Assembly: GCF_988243305.1 (NCBI RefSeq)
Contig: NZ_OZ547136.1
DNA length: 64,000 nt
Strand: one strand, 5' to 3'
The notes beneath the pieces were generated by a model. That model worked only from the letters and a program-made list of their open reading frames with translations, was not told the origin of the DNA and did not search any database. The translations under genes were made by a program, and so were the position numbers. Shown here piece by piece: positions 5,398-34,109 of this stretch (position 1 is its first letter; each line of letters opens with the position of its first letter).

Positions 5398-5407
5398 GGA
5401 GTAGCCC

Positions 5408-16329: not shown

Positions 16330-16466
16330 ATGGCAAAGCCGATCATCACGCTCAATGGCCTAAAAATCGTCATTATGTTGGGAATGCTGGTCATTATTCT
16401 CTGCGGTATCCGTTTTGCCGCCGAGATCATCGTGCCGTTTATTCTCGCATTATTTATTGCTGTTAT
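16330..16466 (+). pseudogene. tqsA: 5' fragment of the AI-2 exporter gene tqsA (first ~46 codons), interrupted by the island; the frame runs on into island sequence and stops at 16492-16494
   Basis: Encodes [45 protein letters not shown], then diverges; the rest of the gene resumes at 31796. Confidence 0.8.
16458..16466. repeat. Left copy of 9-bp direct repeat TGCTGTTAT at the island/host junction (putative att core or target duplication)
   Basis: Identical 9-mer at 31787-31795; both lie exactly where tqsA reading frame is broken and resumed. Confidence 0.65.
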
Positions 16467-17231
16467 ATATAACTTATTTCACATAACACGTTGATTTAAT
16501 TAAATAATTTTCACCGCAAAAAGTGCCAAAAATCGCAAAATGACTACACCAGTGACTACACCGTTCGGTGCACTGTATGAAACAACGTGGAACAAATAGA
16601 CACAAGAAATATACAGGCGGATCATCTTTCCAGGGGGAAGCGCACCAATTCATGAGGGGCGTTAATGTCGATATGGGGATCCCCACCTACCGGAATTTTT
16701 TTCCGGTTAAACGTTAATCAGGCTGGTGGGCTTTACCTGTTCGGTAGGTGTTATGATTATCGTAATACCTTTCCCCCAATGGGGTAAAAGCATCAACCGT
16801 AACGAAAGTCGTTATGGTTGCCACTGATACCCCAAATTTGGGTATCACGAGTAAGACCCAAAATCTGGGTGTTACTCTTACTACCCAAACTACGGGTAGT
16901 TTCCGTAGTTTCATGGTCGAGTTGCAGATCTGCAACTCCCCCATTAACCACAGGCGAATTTCCGCCTTCGGTCATTCCTTAATCATCTGCGTAATCATAA
17001 TGATTATTCAGCAAGCGCAATTTTGCACTTTGCTTAAAGTTCAGCGAGTTACCGCGCCGACTTCCTCAAATTGAGGTTTCCGAAAATATCAGCGGGTTAG
17101 CGATTAAGCTGATCATTAATTAAACTGCGAAAATTTCGTAGTTTGTGACTGTCTTTCAGGCAGCTTGTTAACAGTCCTCAGAAGCGAGGGATGTAGCCAC
17201 CCATTTTTGGTCCGTCGGGAATATCAACCAG

Positions 17232-17513
17232 TTACCGCCGCAACCGCTCCGGCTTCTTCCAGTGGTACGTTATTTTCTCCTTCTCCCGATACATCTCCAC
17301 GCGGCGACGGTAGGCCAGCAACTCAAGAACTCTGGTTCGTATGTTGCGCATATCCACGCCATTAAGTTCTATACCATCACGGCGCATCACCTCAGCAACA
17401 ACACGCGCATAGTTTTCGGCTGTCACGCTGTCCGGCTGCGTGGCCTGTTCGTCAGCCTGCTGGCTGATTCCGGCAACGCGGCGGATTAATCCCGTTATTT
17501 CGGCTTCTGTCAT
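17232..17513 (-). CDS. Hypothetical protein, last gene of the packaging operon
   Basis: 93-aa ORF immediately downstream of the large terminase on the same strand; no recognisable motif. Confidence 0.4.
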   Translation of the reverse strand: MTEAEITGLIRRVAGISQQADEQATQPDSVTAENYARVVAEVMRRDGIELNGVDMRNIRTRVLELLAYRRRVEMYREKEKITYHWKKPERLRR

Positions 17514-17526
17514 GCTGCTGACCTCA

Positions 17527-19188
17527 TTACACCCCGCTAAATTCTTCCAGTTTCTGGCGGTGGCTGTCGCTTATATCAAAAGCAAAATCCTCATGCTCTG
17601 CCTGGAATGTACCAAACGCCATCAGCGCCGCCACGCTCGGGTCTATCTTGTTCGGTGATTTTTTCTTGTTCGGCTTGATATTGGCGTTCGCGTCACTCTG
17701 CATCACGACGTTACTCATCGACCAGGACAACACCGGATCGCCACGATGCACAATCACCCTGCGGTTAACAAAAACTTCGAACGATTTCGCCGCCGGACTG
17801 AATCTGAGGTAGGTTTGCGGGAACGGCTCCACCTCAAAACCTGCCCCCTGTAATTGCGTTCTGAGATGCGTGGCGTTCCACGTATCAAAGCCCACCAGCC
17901 TGATATTAAATTTCTCCGCGTCCTGCATGATGTCATCTCTGATCCGGTCGTAATCAATGCAGTCGCCAGGCGTTGTGCGTATCCAGCCTGCTTTAGCCCA
18001 CTGACGATAGATGGCGCGGTTTTTATTGGCGGGGTTCTGTAGCTGAAATTCCGGCAGATAGTGACGGGAAACCAGCATAATGGTTTTACCGACCGGAAAG
18101 GCATAGCACACGCTGGAAATATCGCTGGTTGATGATAAGTCCAGCCCCGCGTAACACTCCTGGCCGTGTAAATCTTCCTCCGTGAACGTTCCGGCACACT
18201 CAGCCCATGCGCCGTTACCCATCCACGGGGTAGCCCCCAGGCACCAGATATTAAATCGCTTTGTCATCATCTCCACCCACTGCGACGGAATACCCCGCGC
18301 TTTCTGGATGGTTGAGGCCAGTTTTTCACGATCCACGGAAACATCAATATTAGGGTTCGCCTTTATCCACATCGCCGGATCATCAACCTCGTTTTCGTCG
18401 TCCAGTTCGTAAATCAGTACAAAAATTGAATCGTTGACCTCTTCGCCGTCCAGGATCTGGCAGCAATAATCATAGTGCTGCTTACAGGCTGAAACGACGT
18501 TACTGCCTGATGTGGTAATAGCAAATAACAGCCCTTCGGGACGTGCGCCCATCCCCAGCTCAAGCGCGGAATAAACGCCGTTATCGGGGTGCAAGTGGTA
18601 TTCGTCCACGATGGAAAGGCTGGGGTTTGTTCCCTCGATGGTTGCCGCTTTTGCTGCCAGCGGCTTTAACAGGCTGTTGCTTTTCGGGTGTATCACCTTA
18701 TGCGCCTGAATATTCACCCGCCTGCGTAACGGTCGGGATAAAAGGCACATCTGACGCGCATCATCAAAGACGATCCGCGCCTGGTCACGGCTCACCGCTG
18801 CGGTGTAAATATCCTGCTGACCGTTCTCCATAATCAGAAACCAGTTAGCCAGAATCGCGGCGGTCGTGGATTTCGCATTTTTGCGCGGCACTTCGATAAA
18901 GGCGCTCGTGTATTTGCGCCGTCCGGTGGCCTTAACCTTAAAGCCGAGGATGCACGCAAAGGCGAACTGCTGCCACGGCTCCAGCTCAATGGGTCTGCCA
19001 CGCATCGGCCCTTTTACGTGCGGGCACACCCTGGAAAAGGCAATAAACCGCTCCACAACCTCACGATCGAACGTGTAAAGGGGGCTTTCAAGGTCCGAAA
19101 AGTACCGTTTAACGGCCTGTTTCAGCCGTTTACAGGCCGGAATTTTGCCCGTTTTTACGTCTTCTGCGTACTTATTCCAGGCGGTCAA
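17527..19188 (-). CDS. Phage terminase large subunit
   Basis: 553-aa ORF with ATPase N-terminal region and nuclease C-terminal region typical of Terminase_1-type TerL; follows TerS. Confidence 0.85.
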   Translation of the reverse strand: MTAWNKYAEDVKTGKIPACKRLKQAVKRYFSDLESPLYTFDREVVERFIAFSRVCPHVKGPMRGRPIELEPWQQFAFACILGFKVKATGRRKYTSAFIEVPRKNAKSTTAAILANWFLIMENGQQDIYTAAVSRDQARIVFDDARQMCLLSRPLRRRVNIQAHKVIHPKSNSLLKPLAAKAATIEGTNPSLSIVDEYHLHPDNGVYSALELGMGARPEGLLFAITTSGSNVVSACKQHYDYCCQILDGEEVNDSIFVLIYELDDENEVDDPAMWIKANPNIDVSVDREKLASTIQKARGIPSQWVEMMTKRFNIWCLGATPWMGNGAWAECAGTFTEEDLHGQECYAGLDLSSTSDISSVCYAFPVGKTIMLVSRHYLPEFQLQNPANKNRAIYRQWAKAGWIRTTPGDCIDYDRIRDDIMQDAEKFNIRLVGFDTWNATHLRTQLQGAGFEVEPFPQTYLRFSPAAKSFEVFVNRRVIVHRGDPVLSWSMSNVVMQSDANANIKPNKKKSPNKIDPSVAALMAFGTFQAEHEDFAFDISDSHRQKLEEFSGV

Positions 19189-19528
19189 GCTCGTCCTCTT
19201 CTTCTGTTTCCGGTGGATTTTTACGGCGGCTTATCGGGTCAAAACCGAGCAAGGAGGCCATTTTTATCATCACCCTTTCAGCGTCGGATTTTGCGCTTAA
19301 TGCGGGGTTTCTGCTCTCGCCGCCCTGACTGTTAACAATGCTGAACCCGCGCGCCGCAAGGTCTGCAACGGCTTTCCGGTAAATGGAGTAGTTGACACAA
19401 TACAGTTCCAGATTGCTCCAGTCGGCGGGGGTCAGGTCTCCCCGTTCCGCAAGCTGCCGCGATTTTTCCCGCCACTGCTTCACGGCGATGTCATCCAGGT
19501 AGGCGGGGGCTTTCGGTGGTCTTGCCAT
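19172..19528 (-). CDS. Phage terminase small subunit (P27-family-like)
   Basis: 118-aa ORF with acidic C-terminus, immediately upstream of and overlapping TerL; family assignment from recall. Confidence 0.7.
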   Translation of the reverse strand: MARPPKAPAYLDDIAVKQWREKSRQLAERGDLTPADWSNLELYCVNYSIYRKAVADLAARGFSIVNSQGGESRNPALSAKSDAERVMIKMASLLGFDPISRRKNPPETEEEDELDRLE

Positions 19529-19817
19529 ACTTATTTTTTCGCCAGATTATTTTTCAAAAAATTCCCGTGCATAAAAATTTGAGGAGGCGTTCGGTGCCCG
19601 GCGGGGTCGGGTTTGTCCTGAAAACGCCCCCCACCCCGTCATACAGCCTCATCAGCGATTGCGGAAACATTCCATAACCTCGCGGTCACGGTCGGTTAAT
19701 CGCTTCGCTGTGATGCGTTCTGCGCGTCCTGACGCTTTATCTTTATGCCCTGTTTCCTGTGTCTTCCATGCGTCACGCTGCCTTATAAGTCCACGGATAA
19801 GGCGGTTTTGTTCCCGC
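19529..19817. other. Candidate cos/packaging-site region between HNH endonuclease and TerS
   Basis: 289-bp intergenic gap with G+C-rich tracts (GGTGCCCGGCGGGGTCGGG, CGCCCCCCACCCCG); location inferred by analogy with HK97-type HNH-dependent cos phages. Confidence 0.3.
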
Positions 19818-20258
19818 TCATTCATCAGCGTCATACATCCAGTTATTGCGGTTAGCGGACCGTTCTTCCTCTTCACGAAATCCACCTGCGGCACGCTTGC
19901 TTTTTGTTGCCGGATCAAGCCATTTCGTTTTCTGGTTATGACACGCCTGACACAATGGCTGATGGTTCCATTCGGGCCAGAAGAGAACATCATCGCCGCC
20001 ATCGATGGGGATAATGTGATCCACCACCACGGCGGGCGTATATATCCCCTTCTCAAGGCATCGCACGCATAACGGGTTTTTACTCAGATACATGGCGCGG
20101 TATTTGTCCCACTGTCTGGAGTACCCACGCGCGCGGCGGTGTCCTCGTCTGGCATCCTCTGCACGCCATGCCGCCCGCCTGTGCTCCTCACACTTACCGG
20201 ACTTAACGCGCCTGTTACAGCCTGGTTCTGTACATCGTCTTAATGGTTGCCACGGCAT
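19818..20258 (-). CDS. HNH endonuclease
   Basis: Cys-rich N-terminus (CTEPGCNRR...CEEH) and VVDHIIP...NHQPLCQACHNQKT HNH motif; sits immediately upstream of terS. Confidence 0.8.
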   Translation of the reverse strand: MPWQPLRRCTEPGCNRRVKSGKCEEHRRAAWRAEDARRGHRRARGYSRQWDKYRAMYLSKNPLCVRCLEKGIYTPAVVVDHIIPIDGGDDVLFWPEWNHQPLCQACHNQKTKWLDPATKSKRAAGGFREEEERSANRNNWMYDADE

Positions 20259-20554
20259 CAGTACACCCCCACATCACGGTAAGCCGTCCAGAGTGCGCCT
20301 ATCGTCATGGGTACGCGCGTTTTTGCGTTATCCGCGACAATCTGGCGATTTTCATACAGGTGAGCGATAAACATCATGCAGCCAATCTTTATGGCTGGCG
20401 TGAACTCCAGCCCGTCATCAAAGCGCCTGCCTATGTGTATCTGGCACGCCTCAAGCGATGCGGCAATGTATCCGCTGATTAACTGGTCTTCATCGTCGCC
20501 ATCGATGCGGCAATGGAGTTTCACTTCTTCCAGGGTGATAAGTTCTTCTGTCAT
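20258..20554 (-). CDS. Phage gp6-like head-tail connector protein
   Basis: 98-aa ORF MTEELITLEEVKLHCRIDGDDEDQLISGYIAAS... resembling the gp6-like connector family; within the head module. Confidence 0.6.
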   Translation of the reverse strand: MTEELITLEEVKLHCRIDGDDEDQLISGYIAASLEACQIHIGRRFDDGLEFTPAIKIGCMMFIAHLYENRQIVADNAKTRVPMTIGALWTAYRDVGVY

Positions 20555-20889
20555 TTTTCCGCGCCCTCACGACAAAGAATTTCAAGGCGTGTCCTGGCGG
20601 CATCCGGCAACGGTTGCCCGATGATATTCAGTACACGCCCCGCCAGCGGCCCTGTATTGACCTTTATCCGACTGGTGGCGTTGATGTCCTTCCGGTAGCG
20701 TATCCATATCCTTACCGTTCCAGTCGCCAGCTCTGCACCTGATGAAATGGCCTCCTTGCTGCTGATCATGTTCACGCTTGCCCAGAGTGTGTGACCGTCC
20801 ACCCACGTTTCGAGTATTTCGCCGGTTATATCCCTGGTCTGTTTCAGGGTCTGAATCGTTACCCTGTCACGCAGTCGCCCTATGTTCAT
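20551..20889 (-). CDS. Phage head closure / head-tail joining protein
   Basis: Start taken at MNIGRLRDRVTIQ, overlapping the portal stop by 4 nt; resembles head-tail joining family. Confidence 0.6.
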   Translation of the reverse strand: MNIGRLRDRVTIQTLKQTRDITGEILETWVDGHTLWASVNMISSKEAISSGAELATGTVRIWIRYRKDINATSRIKVNTGPLAGRVLNIIGQPLPDAARTRLEILCREGAEK

Positions 20890-22097
20890 TCCGGTTTTTC
20901 TCCCTCGCTGATTTTTACTTCCTGTTTCCATGCCTGGCTGAACTCATCACCACCATCACGCGGGGACAGCCCTTCACGTTCGCGGGCTTCGTTCGGGCAC
21001 ATAACGCCGGATTTGATGCCGCGTTCATAGGTGGCAAAGCGTTCGCCAGGTGTGGCCCGTAACAGGTCCGCGCTGTCAAACTCCACCTGATACCGGATAC
21101 CAGGTACAGGCGAGGCCACCAGCAGGGCGTTTTTTATCTGCTGCTCAAAGTTCGCCAGCCACGGGCGCATCGTCATGGTGAGAAATGCGCGGCTTGCCTC
21201 GCTGAAGTTGCTGTAGGTGCTGTTGCTGTATTCCTGCAAAAAAATCGGCGAGACGTTGAACATTCGGGCGATGTCTTCAATGGTGAAGCGACGGGAGGCC
21301 AGCCATTCGGCATCCTGATTACTCATGCCCAGCTGCTGATAGCTCATCCCCCCTTCAAGGATGGGCGTTTTTCCGGCGTTTCTGGCCCCTTTGTAGCGTT
21401 CCAGTGCGGCTAATGCCTGTTTGCCCTTCACGCCGTCCAGCCATTCGCCTGACGTGATAACCCCTGCCGCCATCATGCCATCACGCATCACGCTCGCGCC
21501 GTGGCGTTGTTGGGCCAGCCCAAGCCCCAGCGATTCGCGGCAGATGGTTACAGGTGAGCGCCCCATAAAACCGTCATCCGTGGAGTAACGAAGGTGGAGA
21601 ACCTCCCACGGTAAATAGTTGCGGGTGTTTCCGGTGTAGGCGTCAGTGATGCAGTAGCGCCAGTTATGATCACCTGTCTGCTCCACGTTCACCGACTGCG
21701 GCGGGTAAGGATGTAAAGCCACCGGAAAACCATCACGCCCCCACTGAATCACCGCATAAGCATTACCGTTTAACAGGCAGTGGCGGATCATCATTCGCTT
21801 AAACTGGTAGGGAGTCTGCCACGCGTTCGGGCGCTCGTTGAGGATGTGATCGACCGGATGAGAATCAAGCCACTCGCGGGCCTCCTTCCCCTTCTCATTG
21901 CGTACCAGGTACAGGTAACACGGCATGGTAGCCACCGCCTCAGAGATGACCGTCACGGCGTTCATGACGGCGGGCAGTGATTCCGCTGTCCCCGATGATA
22001 CGTACTCACCCGCCCCCGTGTTCGATGTGCCAGCCAGCGCCATAAACTCATCAAGCGTCATGCTGCGCTGCTCTTTTTTTCTTCTGAAAGGCCACAT
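20886..22097 (-). CDS. Phage portal protein (HK97 family)
   Basis: 403-aa ORF immediately downstream of the prohead protease; composition and size typical of HK97-type portals. Confidence 0.8.
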   Translation of the reverse strand: MWPFRRKKEQRSMTLDEFMALAGTSNTGAGEYVSSGTAESLPAVMNAVTVISEAVATMPCYLYLVRNEKGKEAREWLDSHPVDHILNERPNAWQTPYQFKRMMIRHCLLNGNAYAVIQWGRDGFPVALHPYPPQSVNVEQTGDHNWRYCITDAYTGNTRNYLPWEVLHLRYSTDDGFMGRSPVTICRESLGLGLAQQRHGASVMRDGMMAAGVITSGEWLDGVKGKQALAALERYKGARNAGKTPILEGGMSYQQLGMSNQDAEWLASRRFTIEDIARMFNVSPIFLQEYSNSTYSNFSEASRAFLTMTMRPWLANFEQQIKNALLVASPVPGIRYQVEFDSADLLRATPGERFATYERGIKSGVMCPNEAREREGLSPRDGGDEFSQAWKQEVKISEGEKPE

Positions 22098-22098
22098 A

Positions 22099-22671
22099 TC
22101 ACACCCCCGCTAAATCCACCCACCAGCGGCGATTATCCGCACGCGGCATTTTTTCGGGGTGCTGCTCATACAGGGAACGGCGGGCCAGCTCCACGCCGGA
22201 ATCGGGGTAAGCCGGTACCGATGTAACGGTAATTTCGTACAGTTCCGCCACCAGCACGGTGCGCACGCATGGATCTGTTGTGGTATCCCATACATCCTTA
22301 CGGGAGCGAAAGCCAAAGCTCATCCCCGAGATGTCCCCACGCTTAACCAGTTCGATAACGTCGCGCCCTGTACTGGTATCCGGTGGGGTCAGTTCAAAGC
22401 GTAACCCTGTTTCGTCCTCTTCCAGTTTCAGCGTGCCGGAACGGGTGCGCCCCAGTAACATGCTGTGGTCATGCTCATACAGGCCGCGAACGTCATTACC
22501 CGCCGCAAGCCACTCAGTAAACGCCCCCCGCTGGAATTTTTCGTAAAACTCCCCCCATAGCAGTTCTGAAAGCTTATCCCAGCGAACAACGTAGCCCGTC
22601 AGCGTACCGGCTCCGCTGGTAGTGATTTCCGATGACCGGATTTCCATACTCTTCATAATTTTTTCACCCAT
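22099..22671 (-). CDS. HK97-family prohead maturation protease
   Basis: 190-aa ORF between major capsid and portal genes; sequence resembles the S78-type prohead protease family. Confidence 0.75.
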   Translation of the reverse strand: MGEKIMKSMEIRSSEITTSGAGTLTGYVVRWDKLSELLWGEFYEKFQRGAFTEWLAAGNDVRGLYEHDHSMLLGRTRSGTLKLEEDETGLRFELTPPDTSTGRDVIELVKRGDISGMSFGFRSRKDVWDTTTDPCVRTVLVAELYEITVTSVPAYPDSGVELARRSLYEQHPEKMPRADNRRWWVDLAGV

Positions 22672-22710
22672 AAAACACTAAAGGGGCTTTTAAGCCCCTT
22701 CTGTATGCTG

Positions 22711-23868: not shown

Positions 23869-23906
23869 AAAAAAAAGTCCTGGGGTTAAGTAAGGAACTC
23901 CAGGAC
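23869..23906 (-). terminator. Stem-loop plus U8 run immediately abutting the capsid gene start codon
   Basis: Minus strand reads GTCCTGGAGTTCCTTACTTAACCCCAGGAC followed by TTTTTTTT then ATG. Confidence 0.5.
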
Positions 23907-24111
23907 GCGGCAAACACTCAACCGTTTTTCATAAGGAAATCAGCAATCGCACCGATCGTTTTCCCGCCTGGTAATGAATATTGGCGAGCACATTAACAGG
24001 CGGGAAAGTGGCCCCAGCGTCCTGGCACCACGGGCGAGAATAATCATGATTCAGTTCGGGTAAAATATGCCGATCCGCTCAGTGAACAACGTGGAACAAC
24101 CACGAACAAAT

Positions 24112-24149
24112 AATTTACAAAAAATAACAAAAAGCCGGATTGCTCCGGC
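24112..24149 (-). terminator. Rho-independent terminator downstream of the small gene 24170..24394
   Basis: Minus strand GCCGGAGCAATCCGGC hairpin followed by TTTTTGTTATTTTTT. Confidence 0.6.
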
Positions 24150-24169
24150 TGTATGTGCTGTATGGGTGC

Positions 24170-24394
24170 TCAGTCTCTGATCCCTTTCAGAAATTCTATC
24201 AATGCATCTGTCTGTTCAGGATTTACTGCCAGCATTTCACCGGATAGCGCGCAACGAACAAAACCATGATGATCCTTTTCAATCAGTGCGCCCGTCTCCA
24301 GGAATGCGCGGTAATCATTGATGCTCATCGTCTCCATGTTGTCAGCATGGTATTTATCACGCTGTTTTAATATCTCATCAAATTTCATCGGCAT
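24170..24394 (-). CDS. Small hypothetical protein (74 aa) in a terminator-bounded cassette
   Basis: ATG at 24394 preceded by AGAGGAAAAAACA RBS; terminators on both sides. Confidence 0.55.
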   Translation of the reverse strand: MPMKFDEILKQRDKYHADNMETMSINDYRAFLETGALIEKDHHGFVRCALSGEMLAVNPEQTDALIEFLKGIRD

Positions 24395-24488
24395 TGTTTT
24401 TTCCTCTGTTGTGTCTGTTTGTTTCAGATAGTAACTATGCCTGACCGTGACGAAAACCCGGTAATGCGCCATACCGTTTCAACTGGTG

Positions 24489-24512
24489 CAAAAAAAGCCG
24501 GATTTCTCCGGC
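24489..24512 (-). terminator. Rho-independent terminator ending the replication-region operon
   Basis: Minus strand GCCGGAGAAATCCGGC hairpin followed by TTTTTTT. Confidence 0.6.
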
Positions 24513-24563
24513 TGTGTGATTAGCTGTCCTGGTAATTGCGCCATATTTCATCACCAGCACCAT

Positions 24564-24833
24564 CTATCCCCATTTCGGCATAAGTGCGATCGACTGCCTT
24601 TTCAGGTCTCCGTAATTATCCGGTGGCTCCGGTGGCCTCTGTGCCTTCCTGGAACATTCCAGCCGTCGCATCGTGATGTGATGCCGTTCCTTGTCTGTCT
24701 CCACCAGCAGCATGACTTCACCCCATCGCGCCGACGCCCTCCGGTAAAATCCTTTAGCCTCGAGTTCCTCCGCTATGCGGTCATGTACCATCCTCACCCC
24801 CTCAGAACGGAATACCGTCACCGTAAGGGTCAT
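24564..24833 (-). CDS. Hypothetical protein downstream of ssb; start uncertain (24833 or 24791)
   Basis: ORF in track 24564..24911; candidate ATG starts at 24833 (GGGAGG upstream) and 24791 (GTGAGG upstream). Confidence 0.4.
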   Translation of the reverse strand: MTLTVTVFRSEGVRMVHDRIAEELEAKGFYRRASARWGEVMLLVETDKERHHITMRRLECSRKAQRPPEPPDNYGDLKRQSIALMPKWG

Positions 24834-25212
24834 CGCCTCCCGCTGGTGGCTGATTACCCTGTGTGCCTGTGGTTTTGCGTCTGTTCCCGCCAGGACGTGC
24901 CGCACGGGCACTGATTACGCTGTCTGCAATAACCTGCCAGCCCTGCCGCGTTTCTCCGTTCTGTCCGGTCCACTGGCTTACCTGCATCGTGCCGGATACG
25001 CTGGCAACATCGCCTTTTTGATGTTTAGCCAGGAAGTCGGCCTGTTTGCCAAATGCGATGACCGATAACCATAACGTCGCCTGTCCGTCCTGTGCCTGGC
25101 TGCATGGCAAAGATACCGCCATACGCGCCAGCGTCATCGGTGTGCCCTTGCTGGTCTGTTTTACCTGCGGGTCGTCCACCAGCCGCCCGTAAGCGGCTAT
25201 CTGTGCCGTCAT
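24802..25212 (-). CDS. ssb: Single-stranded DNA-binding protein
   Basis: 136-aa ORF with Gly/Gln-rich linker and C-terminal acidic tail ending DDPYGDGIPF, the hallmark SSB C-terminus. Confidence 0.8.
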   Translation of the reverse strand: MTAQIAAYGRLVDDPQVKQTSKGTPMTLARMAVSLPCSQAQDGQATLWLSVIAFGKQADFLAKHQKGDVASVSGTMQVSQWTGQNGETRQGWQVIADSVISARAARPGGNRRKTTGTQGNQPPAGGDDPYGDGIPF

Positions 25213-25490
25213 AATTCCACCTCTCCGGTTTTAACGTTGATGGTTGTTACCTGTTCCGCTTCGGCAATCTCCCGTTCTGTCAGCGTGGCAAAGTTTGCCG
25301 CCGCCGTGGTCATGAATGCGCTTATCAGGTCGGGATGTTCCTTCGCGTATCCTTCCCGCGTGTGGCGGTCTATCGTTCTGATTGCCACCTTTAAAGCGTG
25401 CTCAGTCATGTCTAACGCTTTATATTTTGGCTCTGTTCTGTCTCTGCGTTTTTGGGTCATTTCTCGCAACCTCTCACTTTTTCGCCTCAC
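25209..25490 (-). CDS. Hypothetical basic protein upstream of ssb
   Basis: 93-aa ORF overlapping ssb start by 4 nt; 5' end overlaps the iteron array so true start may be internal. Confidence 0.4.
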   Translation of the reverse strand: MRRKSERLREMTQKRRDRTEPKYKALDMTEHALKVAIRTIDRHTREGYAKEHPDLISAFMTTAAANFATLTEREIAEAEQVTTINVKTGEVEL

Positions 25491-25662
25491 TTTTTCAAGC
25501 GTCTCACTTCGTCGCAGTTGGGATTTTCGGTTTTTCTATGTGTGTGTTTCATAAGTATTTTTTTACCCCTCACTTTTGAGGATGTATACAGGTCGAAAAG
25601 TGAGGGAGAGCGGGCTAATTTTGGCCCTCTTTCTATCCCCCTCGCTTTTGCTCCTCACTTTT
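25470..25662. repeat. Iteron array (CTCACTTTT, about 7 copies including one inverted); putative replication origin
   Basis: Copies at 25473, 25486, 25502 (imperfect), 25569, 25596 (inverted), 25640 (imperfect), 25654; immediately 3' of the replication ATPase gene. Confidence 0.6.
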
Positions 25663-27061
25663 ATAGCGGCGCTACATCATCCCCATCGATACGAATAACC
25701 CCATCTTTTTCCAGCTTGTACAGCCAGCGCCGGAAGTTTTTCATTTCATACCCCAGTTTTTTCATGTCATCACGTAACAGCGGGATCGTGCACTTGTCGC
25801 CGTTCTGTGTGCGTGAACGGATGCACCCCCATAGCGCGGTATGGTTTTCCGTCTTGTTCCCTGCCTCCTCGATGCGCTCCAGTTCAACAGGAGGGCGCGG
25901 ATCATCCACCACTACCAGCGACGTGATTAATTCACCGTCAGCGTCGGTAAAAAGCTCCACCACGCGTAAGTCATATGCGGCTTCTTTGAGTTCCTCCGCG
26001 TCCTTCATTTTGGTGCATGAGATAACCAGCGCTTCGCTTCCTGCGTCCTCCCTGCGTATCCGGTATTCAGCATCCAGCGAAGCACGAAATGCACTGGAAC
26101 CGCGCGCGCCTTTCGTCTCATCCTTGCCGGAATGGTGAACCACCAGCACCGTGGCCCCTGTGCGTCGTTTCAGTTCGTCACAACCACGGATAAACGCCCC
26201 CATATCACGGGAATCATTTTCATCATTCCCACCAAAGCAACGCGCCAGCGTATCCAGAATAATCATGCGTACAGGTTTACCCGTTTCCCGCTCCACCTGA
26301 CGGGCAGCGATAACCATTTCATCAACATCAAGCGGGGCAGCCGGAAAGATGGGGCGGTTTACCAGATACAGATTTTTCACCTGCTCATCGTGCACAACCT
26401 CCCAGGCTTTTACACGACGCGGAACACCTATACCGCCTTCACCAACCACATAGAGAACCGCACCATGTGCAACCCTGCGGCCTCCCCACTGGCGACCAGT
26501 GGCAACATGGCACGCCCACGATCCGGCAAGGAATGATTTATAGGACCCGCTAGCCCCGTATATGCTGCATAGCGATACCGCCGGAATAATCCCCTTAACC
26601 ACGTAATCCAGTTGCGTGTCGTATCCGGTAGATCCAACGCTCATCGGTAGCGTGGTTTTTCGCTGGTGGTTTTTTTCTTCCACCGGCTCTTTCCCGCGCA
26701 CCCGTTCCAGGTATTCGCGCCAGTTCTCCCGCATATGGCTGTGCATCCCTTCGGGGTAATAATTCGCATCAGTTACACCCGCCGCCGCCAGCTTGTGCGC
26801 AATGGCATTAATATTTGATGGCCTGATGTGGCCTGCCTTGTACAGCCGGACACAATAGCGCCCCTCGTCGATGATTCTCAGGTCTGCCAGTTCATCCAGT
26901 TGATCATCAGCCAGCACAACGGGAGGCACATTATCGCCAGCCAGTCGCCCGTCCTGTTCCTGCCACTGTTTCGCATGTGCCCAGGCATCACTACCCGCAA
27001 AAATAATGACTTCGGTCATCTTGTCGTAAGGCTGTTTTTTTAAGTTCGGTGCGCTTTTCAT
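25661..27061 (-). CDS. Replication initiator with RecA-fold ATPase domain (satellite Pri-Rep-like)
   Basis: 466-aa ORF with Walker A-like YGASGSYKS and downstream ILDTL Walker B-like segment. Confidence 0.65.
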   Translation of the reverse strand: MKSAPNLKKQPYDKMTEVIIFAGSDAWAHAKQWQEQDGRLAGDNVPPVVLADDQLDELADLRIIDEGRYCVRLYKAGHIRPSNINAIAHKLAAAGVTDANYYPEGMHSHMRENWREYLERVRGKEPVEEKNHQRKTTLPMSVGSTGYDTQLDYVVKGIIPAVSLCSIYGASGSYKSFLAGSWACHVATGRQWGGRRVAHGAVLYVVGEGGIGVPRRVKAWEVVHDEQVKNLYLVNRPIFPAAPLDVDEMVIAARQVERETGKPVRMIILDTLARCFGGNDENDSRDMGAFIRGCDELKRRTGATVLVVHHSGKDETKGARGSSAFRASLDAEYRIRREDAGSEALVISCTKMKDAEELKEAAYDLRVVELFTDADGELITSLVVVDDPRPPVELERIEEAGNKTENHTALWGCIRSRTQNGDKCTIPLLRDDMKKLGYEMKNFRRWLYKLEKDGVIRIDGDDVAPL

Positions 27062-27357
27062 TTCTTGCCCCTGAATCCGTTAATCATGGTTTTCAGCTTC
27101 TGGATGTTTGCCCGTGCCCTGGCGTTGCTGGTGGGCACGTTATGCGGCGCGGTCTGTACCAGAGAAAAATCACGCCGGAACTGATAAACAGGCATCACGC
27201 AATCATATTCGTAACCTTCACGGCGGTAGGTTACGCGCCGTTCTTCCACGCCCTTAATCATTACCGTGCCGCCGTACTGGTCGCGGTAAATATCACCGCG
27301 CGTAAATTTAGGGTGAGTGTTGCCACTGGCAGTTAAGCCAGAATATTTAAGTTTCAT
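27058..27357 (-). CDS. Hypothetical protein, translationally coupled to the replication gene
   Basis: 99-aa ORF whose stop overlaps the replication ATPase start by 4 nt. Confidence 0.45.
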   Translation of the reverse strand: MKLKYSGLTASGNTHPKFTRGDIYRDQYGGTVMIKGVEERRVTYRREGYEYDCVMPVYQFRRDFSLVQTAPHNVPTSNARARANIQKLKTMINGFRGKK

Positions 27358-27362
27358 TATTT

Positions 27363-27596
27363 TTATTCTCCGGTGTGCTGTTCTTTATATCTGTCGTGCA
27401 ATAGATCTATTTCTTGCAGTTCCATTATTACAGGCTCAAGAAGCGTTATTAATGCCGTGGCAATTCTTGATTTTTGTTTGTCGCGTTCATTGTCGCCAAG
27501 TGTTTCAAGCCATATGCGCAATATTTCCAGCATGTTTTCACTGTGAGAAAGTGCAAGAAATACGCGGTCTATTGTTTCGTGGTAAATATCACGCAT
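27363..27596 (-). CDS. Hypothetical small protein
   Basis: 77-aa ORF tightly packed between neighbouring ORFs on the same strand. Confidence 0.4.
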   Translation of the reverse strand: MRDIYHETIDRVFLALSHSENMLEILRIWLETLGDNERDKQKSRIATALITLLEPVIMELQEIDLLHDRYKEQHTGE

Positions 27597-27597
27597 A

Positions 27598-28034
27598 TTA
27601 ATCCCCGTCCGTCGTTTTTCTTAAAATAACCTCTGTCACGAAATCAGCATAATCGGCGGCGATATTCAGTACATCAAGCCCCGTTGATTTATATTCTCTC
27701 GTGGAAAGTAAGAAAAAAGCCGCTCTAATAAGTTCTGGCATTGACGAAAGCGCATCAGCCGCATCATCAGGAACGCCGGAAAATTCCTGTTTCAGGGAAT
27801 TAAAACGATCATCACGCATAACCCCCCCCCATTTTCACAATCAGCAACAAGAATATTTTTAGCGTCATTCAGCGACCGCGTTGCGATGTATCGGATACAT
27901 TCCAGGGCGAACTGTGTCCGGTCTTTCTGTTCTTCTCCCTGCGCAAGCTCTGCAGTGCATTCAATATCGATAAGCGCGTGCATCAGCGTAGTGAGCGCGG
28001 CGGCTGCTGCGTCCGGTGTGGTTTTATTGCACAT
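27598..28034 (-). pseudogene. Gene split into two frames by a G9 homopolymer tract (27822-27830); frameshifted or phase-variable
   Basis: Upstream part starts at ATG 28034 with AGGAGG RBS and ends 27792; downstream part 27598..27819 begins 3 nt after the tract in the +1 frame. Confidence 0.55.
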
Positions 28035-28314
28035 GGCACACCTCCTGACGAATACGGGCGGCGAATACAGCAACACAACCGGACGGGCAACGGCTACGCG
28101 CTTCGCGTTCCGTCCAGGCGGTTACGTGGATGATTTGAGATTCTCCGGCACTTAGTGCCAGAAAACGCCACACAAAGGCCGTTTGTGTGTGTATAAGGCG
28201 TGGTATATGATTTACGGCAACCATAACGGCTCCTAGTTTACGTTGTTGGTTAGACGCCCCGTATGTGTTCCCAGCACTGCGGGGCGTTGATTTTTGTGTA
28301 ATGGCAAGTACAAT

Positions 28315-28358
28315 GGTAATTACCATGTAGGTATAGTAATGAAGGGTAATTACCATGT
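28315..28358. promoter_or_regulatory. Two copies of 14-bp repeat GGTAATTACCATGT, each containing the perfect palindrome GGTAATTACC; putative operator
   Basis: Copies at 28315-28328 and 28345-28358, 30 bp apart; second copy overlaps the ATG of the small plus-strand gene; region lies between divergent gene sets. Confidence 0.55.
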
Positions 28359-28528
28359 CAACACCATTAGAAAAACGTTCGCCTCCATACCAAATGCGAT
28401 TACCGGAAGACTTCAGAGCGCAGCTAGAAGAAGCAGCTAAGGCCGATGGCGACACATCTTTAGCCACTTGGATTAAACGCGTTCTCCGCAAAGAATTACA
28501 GCAACGCGGCATAGAGCCAAAAGGTTGA
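28355..28528 (+). CDS. Small putative DNA-binding protein (Arc/MetJ-type ribbon-helix-helix-like), 57 aa
   Basis: ATG 28355 to TGA 28526-28528: MSTPLEKRSPPYQMRLPEDFRAQLEEAAKADGDTSLATWIKRVLRKELQQRGIEPKG; one of only two plus-strand genes in the island. Confidence 0.5.
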   Translation: MSTPLEKRSPPYQMRLPEDFRAQLEEAAKADGDTSLATWIKRVLRKELQQRGIEPKG

Positions 28529-28549
28529 ATTTCAGAAGGAGATAAAATA

Positions 28550-28702
28550 ATGAACTGGCTGTTACATACCCTCCCAGGTCGCATTCTCATTGCACTAATT
28601 ATTTTATGGATTTTGTACCAATTCGGTTTTTTCGATTCGCTTTGGAAGCCTGACTGTTCCGTTAACCCTGGCGATGTACTGAAAGGCTGTAAAAATGGCT
28701 GA
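28550..28702 (+). CDS. Small hydrophobic peptide (50 aa), predicted membrane-associated
   Basis: AGGAG RBS 8 nt upstream of ATG 28550; MNWLLHTLPGRILIALIILWILYQFGFF... single hydrophobic segment. Confidence 0.45.
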   Translation: MNWLLHTLPGRILIALIILWILYQFGFFDSLWKPDCSVNPGDVLKGCKNG

Positions 28703-29057
28703 TCAGGGTTACTCCCTGTAATGCCTTTAACTGGCCCTCTTAAAGAGGGTTGGTTATCTTCGCAGCTCTCTACGTTTTTCGTCGGAACCTCTGAACCTAA
28801 GCAGTGTTGATGTTCAGGAGAACCCGAATACTGTTCGTGTTCGTTGCTCGCCAATTCTCGCGTTTCGCGATAATCAAAATGATTCAATGGGTTGAGATGT
28901 CCGTACGTTAAACGTACGCGGTTAATTTGTACATGCGAATTTCGTCGGCTCAAATTCTGCGCAACCCTGCTTGAGTTATGCAAATAGCACGCGGCTAACT
29001 CACAAGGATTTGAGCGCCCCCAAACGGGGGAGCGCAAAATTTTAGGCATAAGACGCA

Positions 29058-29771
29058 TCAGCGAATCTCCAACACTGACGATGAAGTGATCAGGCTGGCG
29101 AACGCATCCATACGGCGGGCAACCTCACGCACCGCATCGCCTGGACTCATGTCATTACGCACCGCCTCATTAAAGGCCGCCTGTTCGATTTTCTGCATCA
29201 CTACCAACAGCCCCAATTGCTGTTCGTCTGCGGTACCGCGTTCACCATCAGACAAACCAGCCACGCGGTTTTCAGCGCGGGCCAGATTGATGTAATGGTG
29301 CCGTTGTGCGCCCAGAGCTTTTAATCTGTCGCGGCTTTCGTGATAGCCAGGCAGGTACTCACGGCGGATAGGTTCTGCGGCGCGGCGCTTAGTGAATGCC
29401 TTCGTAACATCCAGTTTGAACTGGTTAATACGCTCAGGATCACGCCCTCGGGTGATACGCAGCAGATAGTCGAGCTGCGGCTCATTCAGCAGATAACTAA
29501 TCTCAGGACGCCCACGCTTTCGGCCGGATTTTCCCGATTTCAAATCGGTTAATTCCTTGAGTGACTGACGAGGCAGTGATCCCAGCTCGCGCAATCTGCT
29601 CTGGTGCGATTTAATCGTCGCGCTTAAGCTTTCATGTTGTATTCCGGCTCGCTCTGAAATAACGCGGGAATCGATACGCGGCTCCGATTTGTGATTAATT
29701 AAAATATCGCTCTGGCTGGCTTCAGGGCGAACGAATCCCCGCCCACGTTCTGGCGTATATTCAATCTTCAT
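29058..29771 (-). CDS. Hypothetical protein, possible phage-type regulatory protein
   Basis: 237-aa ORF between AlpA and the divergent control region; basic central segment GRKRGRP; no confident family assignment. Confidence 0.4.
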   Translation of the reverse strand: MKIEYTPERGRGFVRPEASQSDILINHKSEPRIDSRVISERAGIQHESLSATIKSHQSRLRELGSLPRQSLKELTDLKSGKSGRKRGRPEISYLLNEPQLDYLLRITRGRDPERINQFKLDVTKAFTKRRAAEPIRREYLPGYHESRDRLKALGAQRHHYINLARAENRVAGLSDGERGTADEQQLGLLVVMQKIEQAAFNEAVRNDMSPGDAVREVARRMDAFASLITSSSVLEIR

Positions 29772-29828
29772 GGTTATAGCTCTGTGTTCAGATGATTGAT
29801 GTGTGGCGGCTGCGTGCCGCCAGCGTGA

Positions 29829-30017
29829 TTAATGAACTGCCTTGCAGCTATCCTTCCAGGCCAGAACCTCGGATAAAGACCAGCCAACGGAACGACCGCC
29901 AAGTTTACGACGTGATGGGAATTGTCCGGCCTTTTCCAGGCGGTAGCGACACGTACGGCTAAGGCCGGTTAGTTTTTCGCATTCTTTTTCACGTATAAAC
30001 CGATCAGTGCTTAACAC
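29829..30017 (-). CDS. alpA: AlpA-family phage transcriptional regulator / excisionase-like HTH protein
   Basis: 62-aa ORF with AlpA-like signature ...LTGLSRTCRYRLEKAGQFPSRRKLGGRSVGW...; adjacent to integrase. Confidence 0.7.
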   Translation of the reverse strand: MLSTDRFIREKECEKLTGLSRTCRYRLEKAGQFPSRRKLGGRSVGWSLSEVLAWKDSCKAVH

Positions 30018-30381
30018 TATTGCCCCCTTTCGTTTCTTAAAGAGTCATCAGGTGTCTTATTGTGTCGTATTGTTCCCGCTAGAGTGATAAATGGCAAATA
30101 CTGAGGATGTATGATTTACAGAAAATGAAACAGTAAGAATAAAATCTTTTAAATTCATGTTAATACAAAGGCATAAAATATTGTTTCATGCCTTTTTTCT
30201 CGCTCTTTAAAGAGTGATTCGCTAGTGTATAAAAAACCAGTAACGCATTAAAAATCAGCTACTTATAAATCCGTACGCTTTTTCGCCTCTTGTTCGTAGT
30301 TGTTCCACATTGTTGCTCATTGTTGCACGTTGTATCTGTTCGCATATACAGTATGCGCATACTGAAAAAACACGAAAAAAA

Positions 30382-31611
30382 TTATTTTCTTCTGGCTACT
30401 GGTAGCGTGGTTACGTTTTCATGTGTTCCCGCCAGTATCCCTAACCGCTCCGTCCACATATCCAGCGCATTGCGTTTAGCATCCAGATAACGGGAATGAT
30501 TATAAACTCGCTGCATTCCTGGCATCTGGTGGCCTGTAAGCTGCTCCACGACATGCGGATCAACGCCTAAATCGTTCAGCATGGTTGTAAAGGTGCGCCG
30601 GATGTCATGCAGTGACCAGTGAGGATGATTAAGCCTCCTGTGCGCTAATCTTCCATACTGCGATACGCTGGCCTCCTGTTTCACTTCCCCCAGCAATAAG
30701 CCCGTGTGCCTGTTCTGCTCCACCAGCTGCGTGACGAACGGCAGGATCGCTTCCGGTATGGGCCGGAATATTGCGACCTTCGTTTTGCTGTGCTCCTTCG
30801 GAACGGTCCATAGCATTTCCGTAAAATCCCACTCCCCGATCTCCGATAACCTCAGTTCTACCGTTCTGGCTCCGAAGACAATCAGGAGGCGGATTAACGC
30901 GACGTAGTAAGGGGAGAATATTTTTTTGTCCAGTGCCTGCAATAATTCGCCAAGTTCTTTGTTACTTAAGACACGTTCGCTTATATCCGGTTTTTTCCCA
31001 ACGTCCGCCACGTTCAGATCGTCCAGAACGTTGCTGATTGCATAGCGCCGCCTACGGCAGAACTTAAGCGCCTGTTTGCACGCCTGTAGCACGAATCCGG
31101 CAGTAACAGGCGTTCGCTTTGCCACCTGGTCAAAACAGGCCAGCCAGTGCCGTAGCTCGCATTTATCCAGCGGCATAGCACCAATCTGCTGTATTACGTG
31201 ATTATTAAGTCGCCTTTTCAGGGCGATATAATCCACGCGGTTTTCCTTTACGTAATACTCAAGCCAGTAGGTGAGCGCATCGCCAACCGTTACGGGCTTT
31301 AACGCTTCCTGTACGGTGTAATTCATCTCATGACGTGGATTTTTCCCCTCAGCCAGCCATGTGCGACACTGTGCGGCTTTTTCCCTGGCTGCTTTCAGGC
31401 TCAGATCAGGATAACTTCCCAGCTTAATGCGTTCGGGTCGTGTCTCCCTTCCCGTTCCGGCCCTGTATGTGAAATACCAGGTCAATTTCCCTGATGTTAA
31501 ATATTTCACGCTCAGGTTTCCGCCATCACTATAAAACGTGTTTTTCTCCGCTGGCTTACCATGAAGTTTCCTTAGCAAGGTATCGCTCAGTTTGTTCATT
31601 GCTCTGCTCAC
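30382..31611 (-). CDS. int: Tyrosine site-specific integrase (P4-type)
   Basis: 409-aa ORF; C-terminal catalytic region with HDIRRTF (H-x-x-R) and a downstream tyrosine; located at the island right end. Confidence 0.85.
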   Translation of the reverse strand: MSRAMNKLSDTLLRKLHGKPAEKNTFYSDGGNLSVKYLTSGKLTWYFTYRAGTGRETRPERIKLGSYPDLSLKAAREKAAQCRTWLAEGKNPRHEMNYTVQEALKPVTVGDALTYWLEYYVKENRVDYIALKRRLNNHVIQQIGAMPLDKCELRHWLACFDQVAKRTPVTAGFVLQACKQALKFCRRRRYAISNVLDDLNVADVGKKPDISERVLSNKELGELLQALDKKIFSPYYVALIRLLIVFGARTVELRLSEIGEWDFTEMLWTVPKEHSKTKVAIFRPIPEAILPFVTQLVEQNRHTGLLLGEVKQEASVSQYGRLAHRRLNHPHWSLHDIRRTFTTMLNDLGVDPHVVEQLTGHQMPGMQRVYNHSRYLDAKRNALDMWTERLGILAGTHENVTTLPVARRK

Positions 31612-31786
31612 GTTTTACCCCCTCTTTACGAAAAAGTGACTACACCAGTGACTACACCGATCGTTGCACAAAGGGCTACAACGTGAAACAAGCTGGAACA
31701 AGGAAAATCACAAATCTGTTGATAATCAAAAACATAATGCACAGCCTGAAACATTATGAAACAGCAAAAAACACTAAATGATAAAA

Positions 31787-31795
31787 TGCTGTTAT
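31787..31795. repeat. Right copy of 9-bp direct repeat TGCTGTTAT at the island/host junction
   Basis: Identical to 16458-16466; the tqsA reading frame resumes here ([11 protein letters not shown]...). Confidence 0.65.
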
Positions 31796-32693: not shown

Positions 32694-32717
32694 CGGCCTC
32701 CGCAGAGGCCGTCAGGG

Positions 32718-34109
<1,392 letters not shown>

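Follow-up and report, generated by a model that had tools for sequence, protein, structure and literature searches.

Those phage-inducible chromosomal islands (PICIs) that are capsid-forming (cf-PICIs) have been defined and studied by experiment (bioRxiv 10.1101/2022.09.08.507074; bioRxiv 10.1101/2025.02.11.637232; PMC10085698). EcCIEDL933 is induced by helper phage, depends on alpA, and is packaged in small capsids of its own (bioRxiv 10.1101/2022.09.08.507074). For two further PICIs, EcCI042 and EcCIK1516, an att core ATAACAGCA has been recorded inside tqsA (Fillol-Salom et al. 2018, PMC6092414, Table S1). The same gene stands among those disrupted by prophage integration in a survey that counted the occupants as prophages (Bobay et al. 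2013, PMC3603311), and the TIGER study lists E. coli tqsA islands of 11, 15, and 16 kb as candidates for regulated gene integrity (Mageeney et al. 2020, PMC7192596).

In the 64-kb stretch of DNA analyzed here (the window), the tqsA frame starts at ATG 16330, runs through 46 native and eight island-derived codons to a stop at 16492–16494, picks up again at 31796, and reaches its natural stop at 32693. We read the insert between the two parts as a cf-PICI of the EcCIEDL933 / O-island-51 family, integrated at the tqsA PICI site, with a probability of roughly 93%. The two breakpoints carry the direct repeat TGCTGTTAT (16458–16466 and 31787–31795); the copies lie 15,320 bp apart, or 15,329 bp counting one core. 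An unrelated third copy occurs at 38528. By chance, a given 9-mer should occur about 0.24 times on each strand of 64 kb, so the repeat by itself is weak evidence, and it is the empty site that establishes the insertion. An 800 bp query made of both flanks and a single 9-mer found a match at one position, spanning 80% or more of the query, in 5165 of 5426 complete E. coli genomes; the best of these matches ran end to end in one piece with 99.9% identity. In island-free genomes the left flank matches exactly up to 16466 and the right flank exactly from 31787. Joining 16330–16466 to 31796–32693 with one copy of the 9-mer restores a 1035-nt open reading frame for an intact 344-aa TqsA. These data confirm the sequence-only reading, which had proposed a mobile island of about 15.3 kb with an integrase in the tqsA coding sequence and a 9-bp direct repeat at its breakpoints, and had predicted that comparison with a K-12-type genome would rejoin the flanks to an intact tqsA with one 9-mer.

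The same reading did not recognize tqsA as a described attachment site. In fact the site is published: the core reported for EcCI042 and EcCIK1516 is the reverse complement of TGCTGTTAT. Cf-PICIs are expected at sites that ordinary prophages leave free. About 257 genomes have no contiguous empty site at tqsA, and this PICI-type integrase lies at the junction in 246 of them, next to the 3′ part of tqsA (∼4.5% of the 5426 genomes); Bobay et al. 2013 counted the tqsA occupants as prophages. This integrase travels with either cf-PICI cargo (related islands L001 and L002) or classical PICI cargo (L005). Use of tqsA by cf-PICIs in particular is suggested by our own genome comparisons and by the sizes of the TIGER islands.

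The break comes after codon 46 of the 344 and lies in the conserved UPF0118/AI-2E domain. No island sequence supplies the lost N-terminus: the island ORF 31494–31781 shares the tqsA frame, yet closes with TGA TAA shortly before the core. Because of this break and the missing replacement, TqsA, the exporter of autoinducer 2 (AI-2), is expected to be without function as long as the island occupies the gene. PGAP annotates the corresponding fragments in L001, L002, and L005 as "pheromone autoinducer 2 transporter, missing C-terminus" and "AI-2 transporter TqsA, missing N-terminus".

Table 1. Features of the tqsA locus and its island (positions in the window; family matches with E-values; L001–L003 and L005, related islands)
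Feature	Position	Strand	Basis
tqsA 5′ fragment (codons 1–46)	16330..16466	+	frame reading; PGAP naming in relatives
attL copy of the 9-bp att core TGCTGTTAT	16458..16466	.	empty-site matches stop at 16466
Non-coding island tail; candidate cos or terminator region	16467..17231	-	
Tandem TGACTACACC x2, P′ arm; putative arm-type integrase binding sites	16541..16562	+	
93-aa conserved hypothetical, last island gene	17232..17513	-	phrog_1561, 2.9e-56; 100% identical in L001, L002
Terminase large subunit TerL	17527..19188	-	phrog_9, 2.5e-178; 98% identity to O157:H7 element
Terminase small subunit TerS, P27 family	19172..19528	-	phrog_83, 2.6e-39; 100% identical to L001, L002; one protein accession in L001, L002, and L003
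60-aa conserved hypothetical	19652..19834	-	phrog_3173, 7.5e-37
HNH endonuclease, packaging accessory	19818..20258	-	phrog_144, 1.2e-44
Head-tail adaptor Ad1	20258..20554	-	phrog_40, 8.4e-36; 99% identity to O157:H7 element
Head closure / head-tail connector Hc1	20551..20889	-	phrog_25, 6.3e-35; 94% identity to O157:H7 element
Portal protein	20886..22097	-	phrog_12, 6.9e-117
HK97-family prohead protease	22099..22671	-	phrog_80, 1.9e-67
Major capsid protein, 385 aa	22711..23868	-	phrog_10, 1.6e-88; 384/385 residues (99.7%) as in O157:H7 element
74-aa conserved small protein	24170..24394	-	phrog_1957, 5.4e-41, ORF residues 27–100
PerC-family transcriptional activator	24564..24791	-	phrog_994, phrog_10396; PGAP "PerC family" in L001–L003
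Single-stranded DNA-binding protein	24802..25212	-	phrog_44, 3.6e-40
Conserved hypothetical	25209..25460	-	phrog_1231, 5.8e-53
Iteron cluster, 6 x AAGTGAG, directly 3′ of repA; putative replication origin	25473..25660	.	
RepA-family replicative helicase, 466 aa	25661..27061	-	phrog_2850, 1.6e-266; phrog_906; PGAP "helicase RepA family protein", 99.8% identical in L002
DUF4222 protein	27058..27357	-	phrog_285; PGAP annotation of L002
Three small conserved ORFs	27363–27596, 27598–27819, 27792–28034	-	phrog_2196, phrog_2512/24341, phrog_5146
Icd-like host cell division inhibitor, 66 aa	28024..28224	-	NF033153, 6.1e-18; phrog_1743
Plus-strand cassette: Arc/RHH (YlcI/YnfO-like) protein, 57 aa (28355–28528), and 50-aa hydrophobic ORF (28550–28702)	28355..28702	+	Arc/RHH: phrog_228, 1.5e-6; NF041551 below its cut-off
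Variable 237-aa gene, Rha-type regulatory domain, downstream of alpA	29058..29771	-	PF09669, 3.2e-5; phrog_2657
AlpA, excisionase-like transcriptional activator	29829..30017	-	phrog_2790, 2.5e-17; 100% identical to O157:H7 element
Tyrosine integrase, 409 aa	30382..31611	-	phrog_1, 7.3e-72; identical to WP_000085276.1 of tqsA islands L001, L005; 91% vs ycfD-phoQ-type integrase
Tandem AGTGACTACACC x2, P arm; putative arm-type integrase binding sites	31635..31658	+	
attR copy of the 9-bp att core TGCTGTTAT	31787..31795	.	empty-site matches begin at 31787
tqsA 3′ fragment (codons 47–344 + stop), without own start or promoter	31796..32693	+	

The gene content is listed in Table 1. As a stand-in for EcCIEDL933, chosen by locus, size, and gene order, we compared it protein by protein with the element of O157:H7 strain PNUSAE146742, which measures 15.46 kb and occupies phoQ-roxA(ycfD), where EcCICFT073 and O-island 51 are also located. 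The gene list of the sequence-only reading (integrase, AlpA, replication ATPase, SSB, head and terminase proteins) agrees with PHROGs, NCBIfam, and the PGAP annotation of near-identical islands, and there are indeed no host housekeeping genes inside. That reading had the structure right; the island, however, is no generic one but belongs to a named, experimentally studied satellite family, the cf-PICIs (bioRxiv 10.1101/2022.09.08.507074). All core genes lie on the minus strand. The cf-PICI core set is complete, each of its 11 members being full length: int, alpA, replication protein, capsid, protease, portal, connector, adaptor, HNH, TerS, and TerL. The length of 15,320 bp falls within the ∼10–18 kb given for cf-PICIs (bioRxiv 10.1101/2025.02.11.637232). 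Further traits of the class are present as well: an integrase gene at one end (30382–31611) and 9-bp att direct repeats; an AlpA regulation module; by sequence, a replication module with an adjacent origin (a predicted RepA-family helicase with six iterons 3′ of it); a capsid module of its own with major capsid protein, protease, and portal, all full length; a head-tail adaptor and connector (phrog_40, phrog_25); and its own HNH, TerS, and TerL (phrog_144, phrog_83, phrog_9). None of the 30 ORFs scanned matched the tail or lysis categories of PHROGs, again as in cf-PICIs. Against 50,697 phage records the island found four matches, all weak and never covering more than 24%, and the best-matching record is itself 16.5 kb long, the size of a cf-PICI. 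The exact mosaic was not found in any complete E. coli genome, the best of them matching over 89%.

Three other class assignments were rejected. The presence of portal, adaptor, connector, and TerL, which are forbidden components in SatelliteFinder (PMC10085698), eliminates a classical Gram-negative PICI of the EcCICFT073 type; the integrase-proximal half is common to classical PICIs. A P4-like satellite is eliminated by the finding that no ORF matched the Sid/Psu/Delta or alpha primase-helicase families in PHROGs or NCBIfam. A complete temperate prophage would measure about 35 kb or more and combine its head genes with tail, lysis, and immunity modules, while this element has only 15.3 kb and no tail or lysis genes.

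Segment 28295–29723 of the island is a non-standard mosaic, and the 237-aa Rha-type gene is absent from the nearest relatives. A 344-aa ORF at 28024–29058 is spurious: its Icd-like family match is limited to the last ∼60 residues, and the rest lies antisense to the two small plus-strand genes. An Rfam scan of 16000–32800 at E ≤ 0.1 gave no match, which argues that this 1-kb stretch is not a known RNA either. A plus-strand cassette similar to the one found here is annotated in CFT073 and strain 300033. The 50-aa hydrophobic ORF of the cassette matched no family and may still have a holin-like role. PADLOC detected no known defense system among ten small or variable island proteins.

Several repeats occur in the non-coding parts of the island. 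All four copies of GACTACACC in the window sit at the island ends, and six of the 12 copies of AAGTGAG fall within 190 bp; the placement of this cluster agrees with the organization of PICI origins in PMC6092414. The island tail is rich in hairpins between 16690 and 16960 (RNA fold z = −7.3) and contains TCAGCGAGTTACCGC three times (17041, 17089, and 17224). It had no DNA match among the 50,697 phage records, and the lambda-type cosN GGGCGGCGACCT is absent from the island when up to two mismatches are allowed. The strongest tail hairpins (16823–16960) are missing from L003 and L005. Judged by eye, the single substitution in the hairpin common to L003 breaks a pair and is not compensatory.

Based on the experiments with EcCIEDL933 and EcCICFT073, the integrase would have recombined attP (...TGATAAAA-TGCTGTTAT-ATATAAC...) with attB in tqsA, and the tandem GACTACACC repeats in both arms are probably its arm-type binding sites. 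By analogy to the same two elements, a helper phage would turn on alpA, leading to excision and switching on the single leftward operon. Replication of the element by the RepA-type helicase may then begin at the iterons that lie just 3′ of the helicase gene. Small capsids would be formed from the capsid protein, protease, and portal of the island; HNH, TerS, and TerL would package island DNA by a cos mechanism; and adaptor and connector would dock tails taken from the helper phage. In view of the identity of adaptor (99%) and connector (94%) to their counterparts in the O157:H7 element, these tails are predicted to be of the HK106 type. We infer excision, induction, capsid formation, and tail use in the present element from its relatives; identities of 94–100% between the relevant proteins point to helper- and alpA-dependent induction, own small capsids, and hijacked tails. 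Helper specificity could differ from that of the O157:H7 element because the RepA replication module and the gene downstream of alpA are unlike their counterparts there.

Could the element be a cf-PICI by descent that is now immobile, for want of a compatible helper, through a defective att or cos site, or through an incompatible mosaic replication module, and hence a fixed tqsA knock-out? We consider this unlikely. There is no helper prophage within the 64-kb window, none of the 17 resident prophages of EDL933 efficiently mobilized EcCIEDL933 (bioRxiv 10.1101/2022.09.08.507074), relatives do decay, as illustrated by the IS1 in the connector gene of strain 14EC001, and the mosaic at 28295–29723 is non-standard. 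However, no core ORF of the present element is shortened or interrupted by an IS or a frameshift, both att cores and the four arm repeats are intact, and the integrase matches, at 100% identity, the one that is found at junctions of 99.8% identity in other strains.

A second alternative concerns the target gene. The insertion could be a selected, reversible switch of the type called regulated gene integrity: the integrated satellite would stop AI-2 export and a regulated, alpA-driven excision would restore it. The locus shows integration in a conserved domain with no restoration of the coding sequence: TGA/TAA stands in frame before attR, the 5′ fragment ends after eight foreign codons, and the UPF0118/AI-2E domain is broken in the sense of the TIGER domain-disruption test. 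In addition, a tight integrase clade reuses one position with different cargo, precise excision is predicted from the sequence to rebuild an intact ORF, and tqsA is on the candidate list of Mageeney et al. (PMC7192596). Nevertheless, we regard such a switch as improbable. The link between AI-2 export and excision is a prediction from sequence, and an occupancy of ∼4.5% suits a tolerated loss equally well. An integrase with 91% identity targets an intergenic site, which argues that gene disruption is not a trait of the family. Moreover, PICI excision normally comes before cell lysis, and the host would therefore seldom profit from a repaired tqsA. If the switch were real, release of a quorum signal would be tied to induction of the satellite or its helper phage.

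Finally, a decayed HK97-like prophage, that is, a cryptic remnant which has lost its tail, lysis, and immunity genes and has no satellite life cycle, is highly improbable: the packaging genes do belong to phage families (HK97-type capsid, protease, and portal; P27-type TerS) and O-island 51 was formerly annotated as a defective prophage (PMC6092414), but an architecture of ∼15 kb with all packaging ORFs intact recurs at no fewer than two att sites and in many lineages with 94–100% protein identity, which random decay would not give, the half with int, alpA, icd-like, DUF4222, ssb, and perC genes is common to classical PICIs, the phage records hold just four weak matches, and EcCIEDL933 was shown to be helper-induced and alpA-dependent with small capsids of its own (bioRxiv 10.1101/2022.09.08.507074).

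In terms of discovery, the assignment as a cf-PICI adds little: published work already covers the element family, its mechanism, and this very attachment core, and the integrase occupies the site in ∼4.5% of complete E. coli genomes. In practice, it implies that 15-kb blocks of this type should be annotated as cf-PICI satellites, not as cryptic prophages. Strains that carry them at tqsA are predicted nulls for the AI-2 exporter, which bears on quorum-sensing and biofilm phenotypes. The two 91%-identical integrases with different targets are convenient for studies of specificity: their attP sites differ only in the overlap, in ∼25 bp of the P′ side, and in the arm repeats, and the two could serve as a natural minimal retargeting pair showing which residues determine core and arm specificity.

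Among known systems, the present element is most like the prototype cf-PICI EcCIEDL933 (O-island 51 / CP-933C), with which it shares size (15.3 vs 15.4 kb), gene order, and a single direction of transcription; neither has tail or lysis genes. Compared with the O157:H7 element at the EcCIEDL933 locus, AlpA is identical, and capsid, TerL, TerS, and adaptor are 98–100% identical. The two differ in their attachment sites: EcCIEDL933 uses the core AAATATGTCC between ycfD and phoQ, whereas the present element uses TGCTGTTAT in tqsA. The integrase is 91% identical to the ycfD-phoQ type, its differences being concentrated in the first 60 residues, and the arm repeats vary together with it (GTGACTACACC in the present element, TTAACTACACC in the EcCIEDL933 type). 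The replication protein is a 466-aa RepA helicase instead of the 710-aa DUF927 primase of the O157:H7 element, the gene after alpA is different, and the plus-strand cassette for the RHH and small proteins is extra.

The classical 11-kb PICIs EcCI042 and EcCIK1516 use the same gene and the same 9-bp core, and a classical PICI at tqsA in strain 300033 has an identical integrase (WP_000085276.1). Classical PICIs have no portal, protease, adaptor, connector, HNH, or TerL; they reshape the capsids of the helper and rely on its terminase, in contrast to the present element with its complete capsid and packaging module. Satellite phage P4 is likewise an enterobacterial integrative satellite with an integrase, an AlpA/Vis-type regulator, and an Icd-like gene, but it makes neither a capsid nor a terminase, changes the size of P2 capsids by means of Sid and Psu, and can exist as a plasmid; such genes were not found in the island. 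By their description, the TIGER islands Eco557.15.tqsA, Eco282.16.tqsA, and Eco33.11.tqsA (15, 16, and 11 kb) resemble the present locus: their insertion in E. coli tqsA was mapped precisely, and they disrupt the UPF0118 domain without restoring it (Mageeney et al. 2020). They were described as integrative elements and candidates for regulated gene integrity, never typed as satellites.

The island that splits tqsA, the gene of an AI-2 exporter, lies between two copies of TGCTGTTAT, at 16458-16466 and 31787-31795, as the sequence-only reading had claimed; a third copy in the window, at 38528, is unrelated. The same reading had correctly placed the two gene parts: translation from the start at 16330 runs through 46 native and 8 island codons to a stop at 16492-16494, and the frame resumes from 31796 to the natural stop at 32693. 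Joined by a single copy of the 9-mer, both parts form an ORF of 344 residues. A 9-bp repeat by itself is poor proof of insertion. The matter is settled by the empty-site test which that reading had proposed. Using an 800-bp construct of both flanks and one core as the query, and counting matches to at least 80% of its length at one place, we found the empty site in 5165 of 5426 complete E. coli genomes, the best matches being one end-to-end piece with 99.9% identity. In island-free genomes, the left flank match ends exactly at 16466 and the right flank match begins exactly at 31787. Outside the island, the window is ordinary chromosome, with ynfEFG, dmsD, clcB, mlc, asr, and mdtJI on one side and pntBA, rstAB, tus, fumCB, and uidCB on the other. 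The G+C content does not mark the island (0.511 vs 0.505 and 0.503). Comparison of window 1-6025 with the corresponding locus of strain G1/2 (L001, 5270-7025) revealed another prophage with its own integrase that splits ynfG in G1/2, about 10 kb upstream of tqsA; ynfE, ynfF, and ynfG are uninterrupted in the window. The neighboring ynfE is a further disrupted-gene target according to TIGER island mapping (Mageeney et al. 2020).

The suggestion that this is not a described attachment site did not hold, as the tqsA core (ATAACAGCA/TGCTGTTAT, the former being the reverse complement of the latter) is already published: two phage-inducible chromosomal islands (PICIs), EcCI042 and EcCIK1516, are listed with ATAACAGCA as their att core and tqsA as their att gene (Fillol-Salom et al. 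2018, PMC6092414, Table S1). In addition, tqsA is among the core genes disrupted by integration (Bobay et al. 2013, PMC3603311), and islands of 11, 15, and 16 kb have been mapped in E. coli tqsA, which was proposed as a possible case of regulated gene integrity, the reversible disruption of a host gene by an integrated element (Mageeney et al. 2020, PMC7192596). The island integrase adjoins the 3' part of tqsA in 246 of the 5426 complete genomes, and the left junction was found in 194. The same integrase protein accompanies cargo that differs between strains: capsid-forming PICIs (cf-PICIs) with a primase (G1/2), cf-PICIs with a RepA helicase, of which that of 14EC001 has an IS1 in the connector gene, and a classical 11-kb PICI (300033). 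This mixed cargo fits the report that certain attB sites are common to PICI and cf-PICI lineages (bioRxiv 10.1101/2022.09.08.507074).

The insertion parts the first 46 residues of TqsA from the remainder, and the island supplies no replacement. An island ORF at 31494-31781 (plus strand, 95 residues), antisense to the integrase N-terminus, shares the frame of the tqsA 3' fragment, but a tandem TGA TAA 6 nt before the core rules it out as a means of restoring tqsA. PGAP annotates a 60-residue version (WP_001332680.1) in related strains. Neither its being a genuine gene nor tqsA expression from it is supported. Because the lost N-terminus is not restored, island carriers are predicted to be tqsA nulls. 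Precise excision would rebuild the gene. The insertion may simply be tolerated; the regulated switch that TIGER puts forward is improbable because PICI excision normally goes along with helper-induced lysis.

Genes were assigned by PHROGs, NCBIfam, and Pfam and from the PGAP annotation of near-identical islands. All core genes lie on the minus strand, and the element is therefore read from right to left. No tail or lysis family was matched among 30 island ORFs scanned, and no PADLOC defense model matched. The island is a cf-PICI satellite. Both this nature and the tqsA attachment site were already known.

Features of the island in reading order
Feature	Position	Strand	Source
Integrase	30382-31611	-	all genes: PHROGs, NCBIfam, Pfam, PGAP
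AlpA	29829-30017	-	
Variable 237-aa protein, weak Rha domain	29058-29771	-	
Icd-like protein	28024-28224	-	
Several small conserved ORFs and DUF4222 protein	between Icd-like gene and RepA helicase	-	
RepA-family helicase	25661-27061	-	
Iteron cluster	25473-25660		
SSB, then PerC-family regulator	after iteron cluster	-	
Major capsid protein, prohead protease, portal	after PerC-family regulator	-	
Head closure/connector, head-tail adaptor	after portal	-	
HNH endonuclease, TerS, TerL	after adaptor	-	
Conserved 93-aa protein	after TerL	-	
Non-coding DNA, 765 bp	between 93-aa gene and attL		

The slot downstream of alpA (28295-29771) is variable: among the 5426 complete E. coli genomes, none matches more than 65% of it. 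Its 237-residue protein carries the weak Rha regulatory domain (PF09669, 3e-5) where related islands encode a 247-residue hypothetical protein; the 2025 cf-PICI paper describes the gene downstream of alpA as variable and of unknown function. A 344-residue minus-strand ORF (28024-29058) was rejected as an artifact, its sole real part being the C-terminal Icd-like protein. Antisense to the remainder lies a plus-strand cassette (28355-28702) for a 57-residue Arc/RHH (YlcI/YnfO-like) protein and a 50-residue hydrophobic protein without a family match. CFT073 and 300033 have comparable cassettes in the equivalent position. The cassette may serve in toxin-antitoxin function or exclusion. The exact mosaic is absent from complete RefSeq E. 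coli genomes; the best match covers 89%, and segment 28295-29723 of the island is unusual. This difference is normal modular variation of the cf-PICI family.

An A+T-rich stretch directly 3' of repA lies between AAGTGAG iterons, six in number, of which one is in inverted orientation. PICI origins are located directly 3' of the replication gene (PMC6092414), and the iterons probably represent the replication origin of the island. Within the non-coding tail (16467-17231), a run of hairpins at 16690-16960 (minus strand) folds far more stably than shuffled sequence (MFE -108.9 vs mean -69.6 kcal/mol; z = -7.3), and TCAGCGAGTTACCGC occurs three times nearby (17041, 17089, and 17224). Searches of this tail for Rfam families, phage DNA matches, and a lambda-type cosN were all negative; neither the related O157:H7 element nor the classical PICI at tqsA has its part 16823-16960. 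The tail may represent the cos region of the cf-PICI, a terminator array, or both.

The predicted attB is gtttattctcgcattatttatTGCTGTTATtcttaacccgctg and the predicted attP is ...aaatgataaaaTGCTGTTATatataacttatttc.... We reconstructed attP from window 31600-31795 and 16467-16640 for comparison with the O157:H7 element at phoQ-roxA (ycfD) of strain PNUSAE146742 (L003, 2470-2640 and 17760-17945). In the ycfD-phoQ type, the core is a perfect 8-7-8 palindrome, TGATAAAA-TATGTCC-TTTTATCA; the tqsA type keeps TGATAAAA followed by TGCTGTT-ATATATAA. This comparison suggests a 7-bp overlap, TGCTGTT, within the 9-bp identity. On the P side, the two types resemble each other as far as the crossover; their differences are confined to the overlap, the roughly 25 bp that follow on the P' side, and the arm repeats. 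All four window copies of GACTACACC form tandem pairs on two arms, with TTAACTACACC/TTGACTACACC in their place in the ycfD-phoQ type. The two integrases are 91% identical and have different targets, with changes clustering in the N-terminal 60 residues, a pattern consistent with co-varying arm-site recognition.

In O157:H7 strains, a 15.46-kb element with identical gene order lies between phoQ and roxA (ycfD), the locus of EcCICFT073 and O-island 51 (PMC6092414). By locus, size, and gene order, this element stands in for the prototype cf-PICI, EcCIEDL933. Its AlpA is 100% identical to that of the island, its capsid protein matches in 384 of 385 residues, and adaptor, TerL, and connector are 99%, 98%, and 94% identical; the island TerS equals that of G1/2 and 14EC001, whose protein accession recurs in the O157:H7 element. 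The phage collection yielded matches, all weak, in only 4 of 50,697 records. The best, LR881103.1 ("Escherichia phage vB_KppS-Ant", 16.5 kb), is described as an induced prophage and shares about 78% identity with the packaging and replication genes. To judge from its size and gene list, this record resembles a cf-PICI that was deposited as a phage; the annotation of one of its genes reads tape measure protein. Such scarce and weak matches support the published point that cf-PICIs are not phages. For EcCIEDL933, alpA-dependent induction by helper phages HK106 and HK446 was shown experimentally; it makes its own small capsids, its HNH-TerS-TerL packages itself alone, and tails are the sole helper contribution to its particles (bioRxiv 10.1101/2022.09.08.507074). 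Which tails fit is set by its adaptor and connector (bioRxiv 10.1101/2025.02.11.637232).
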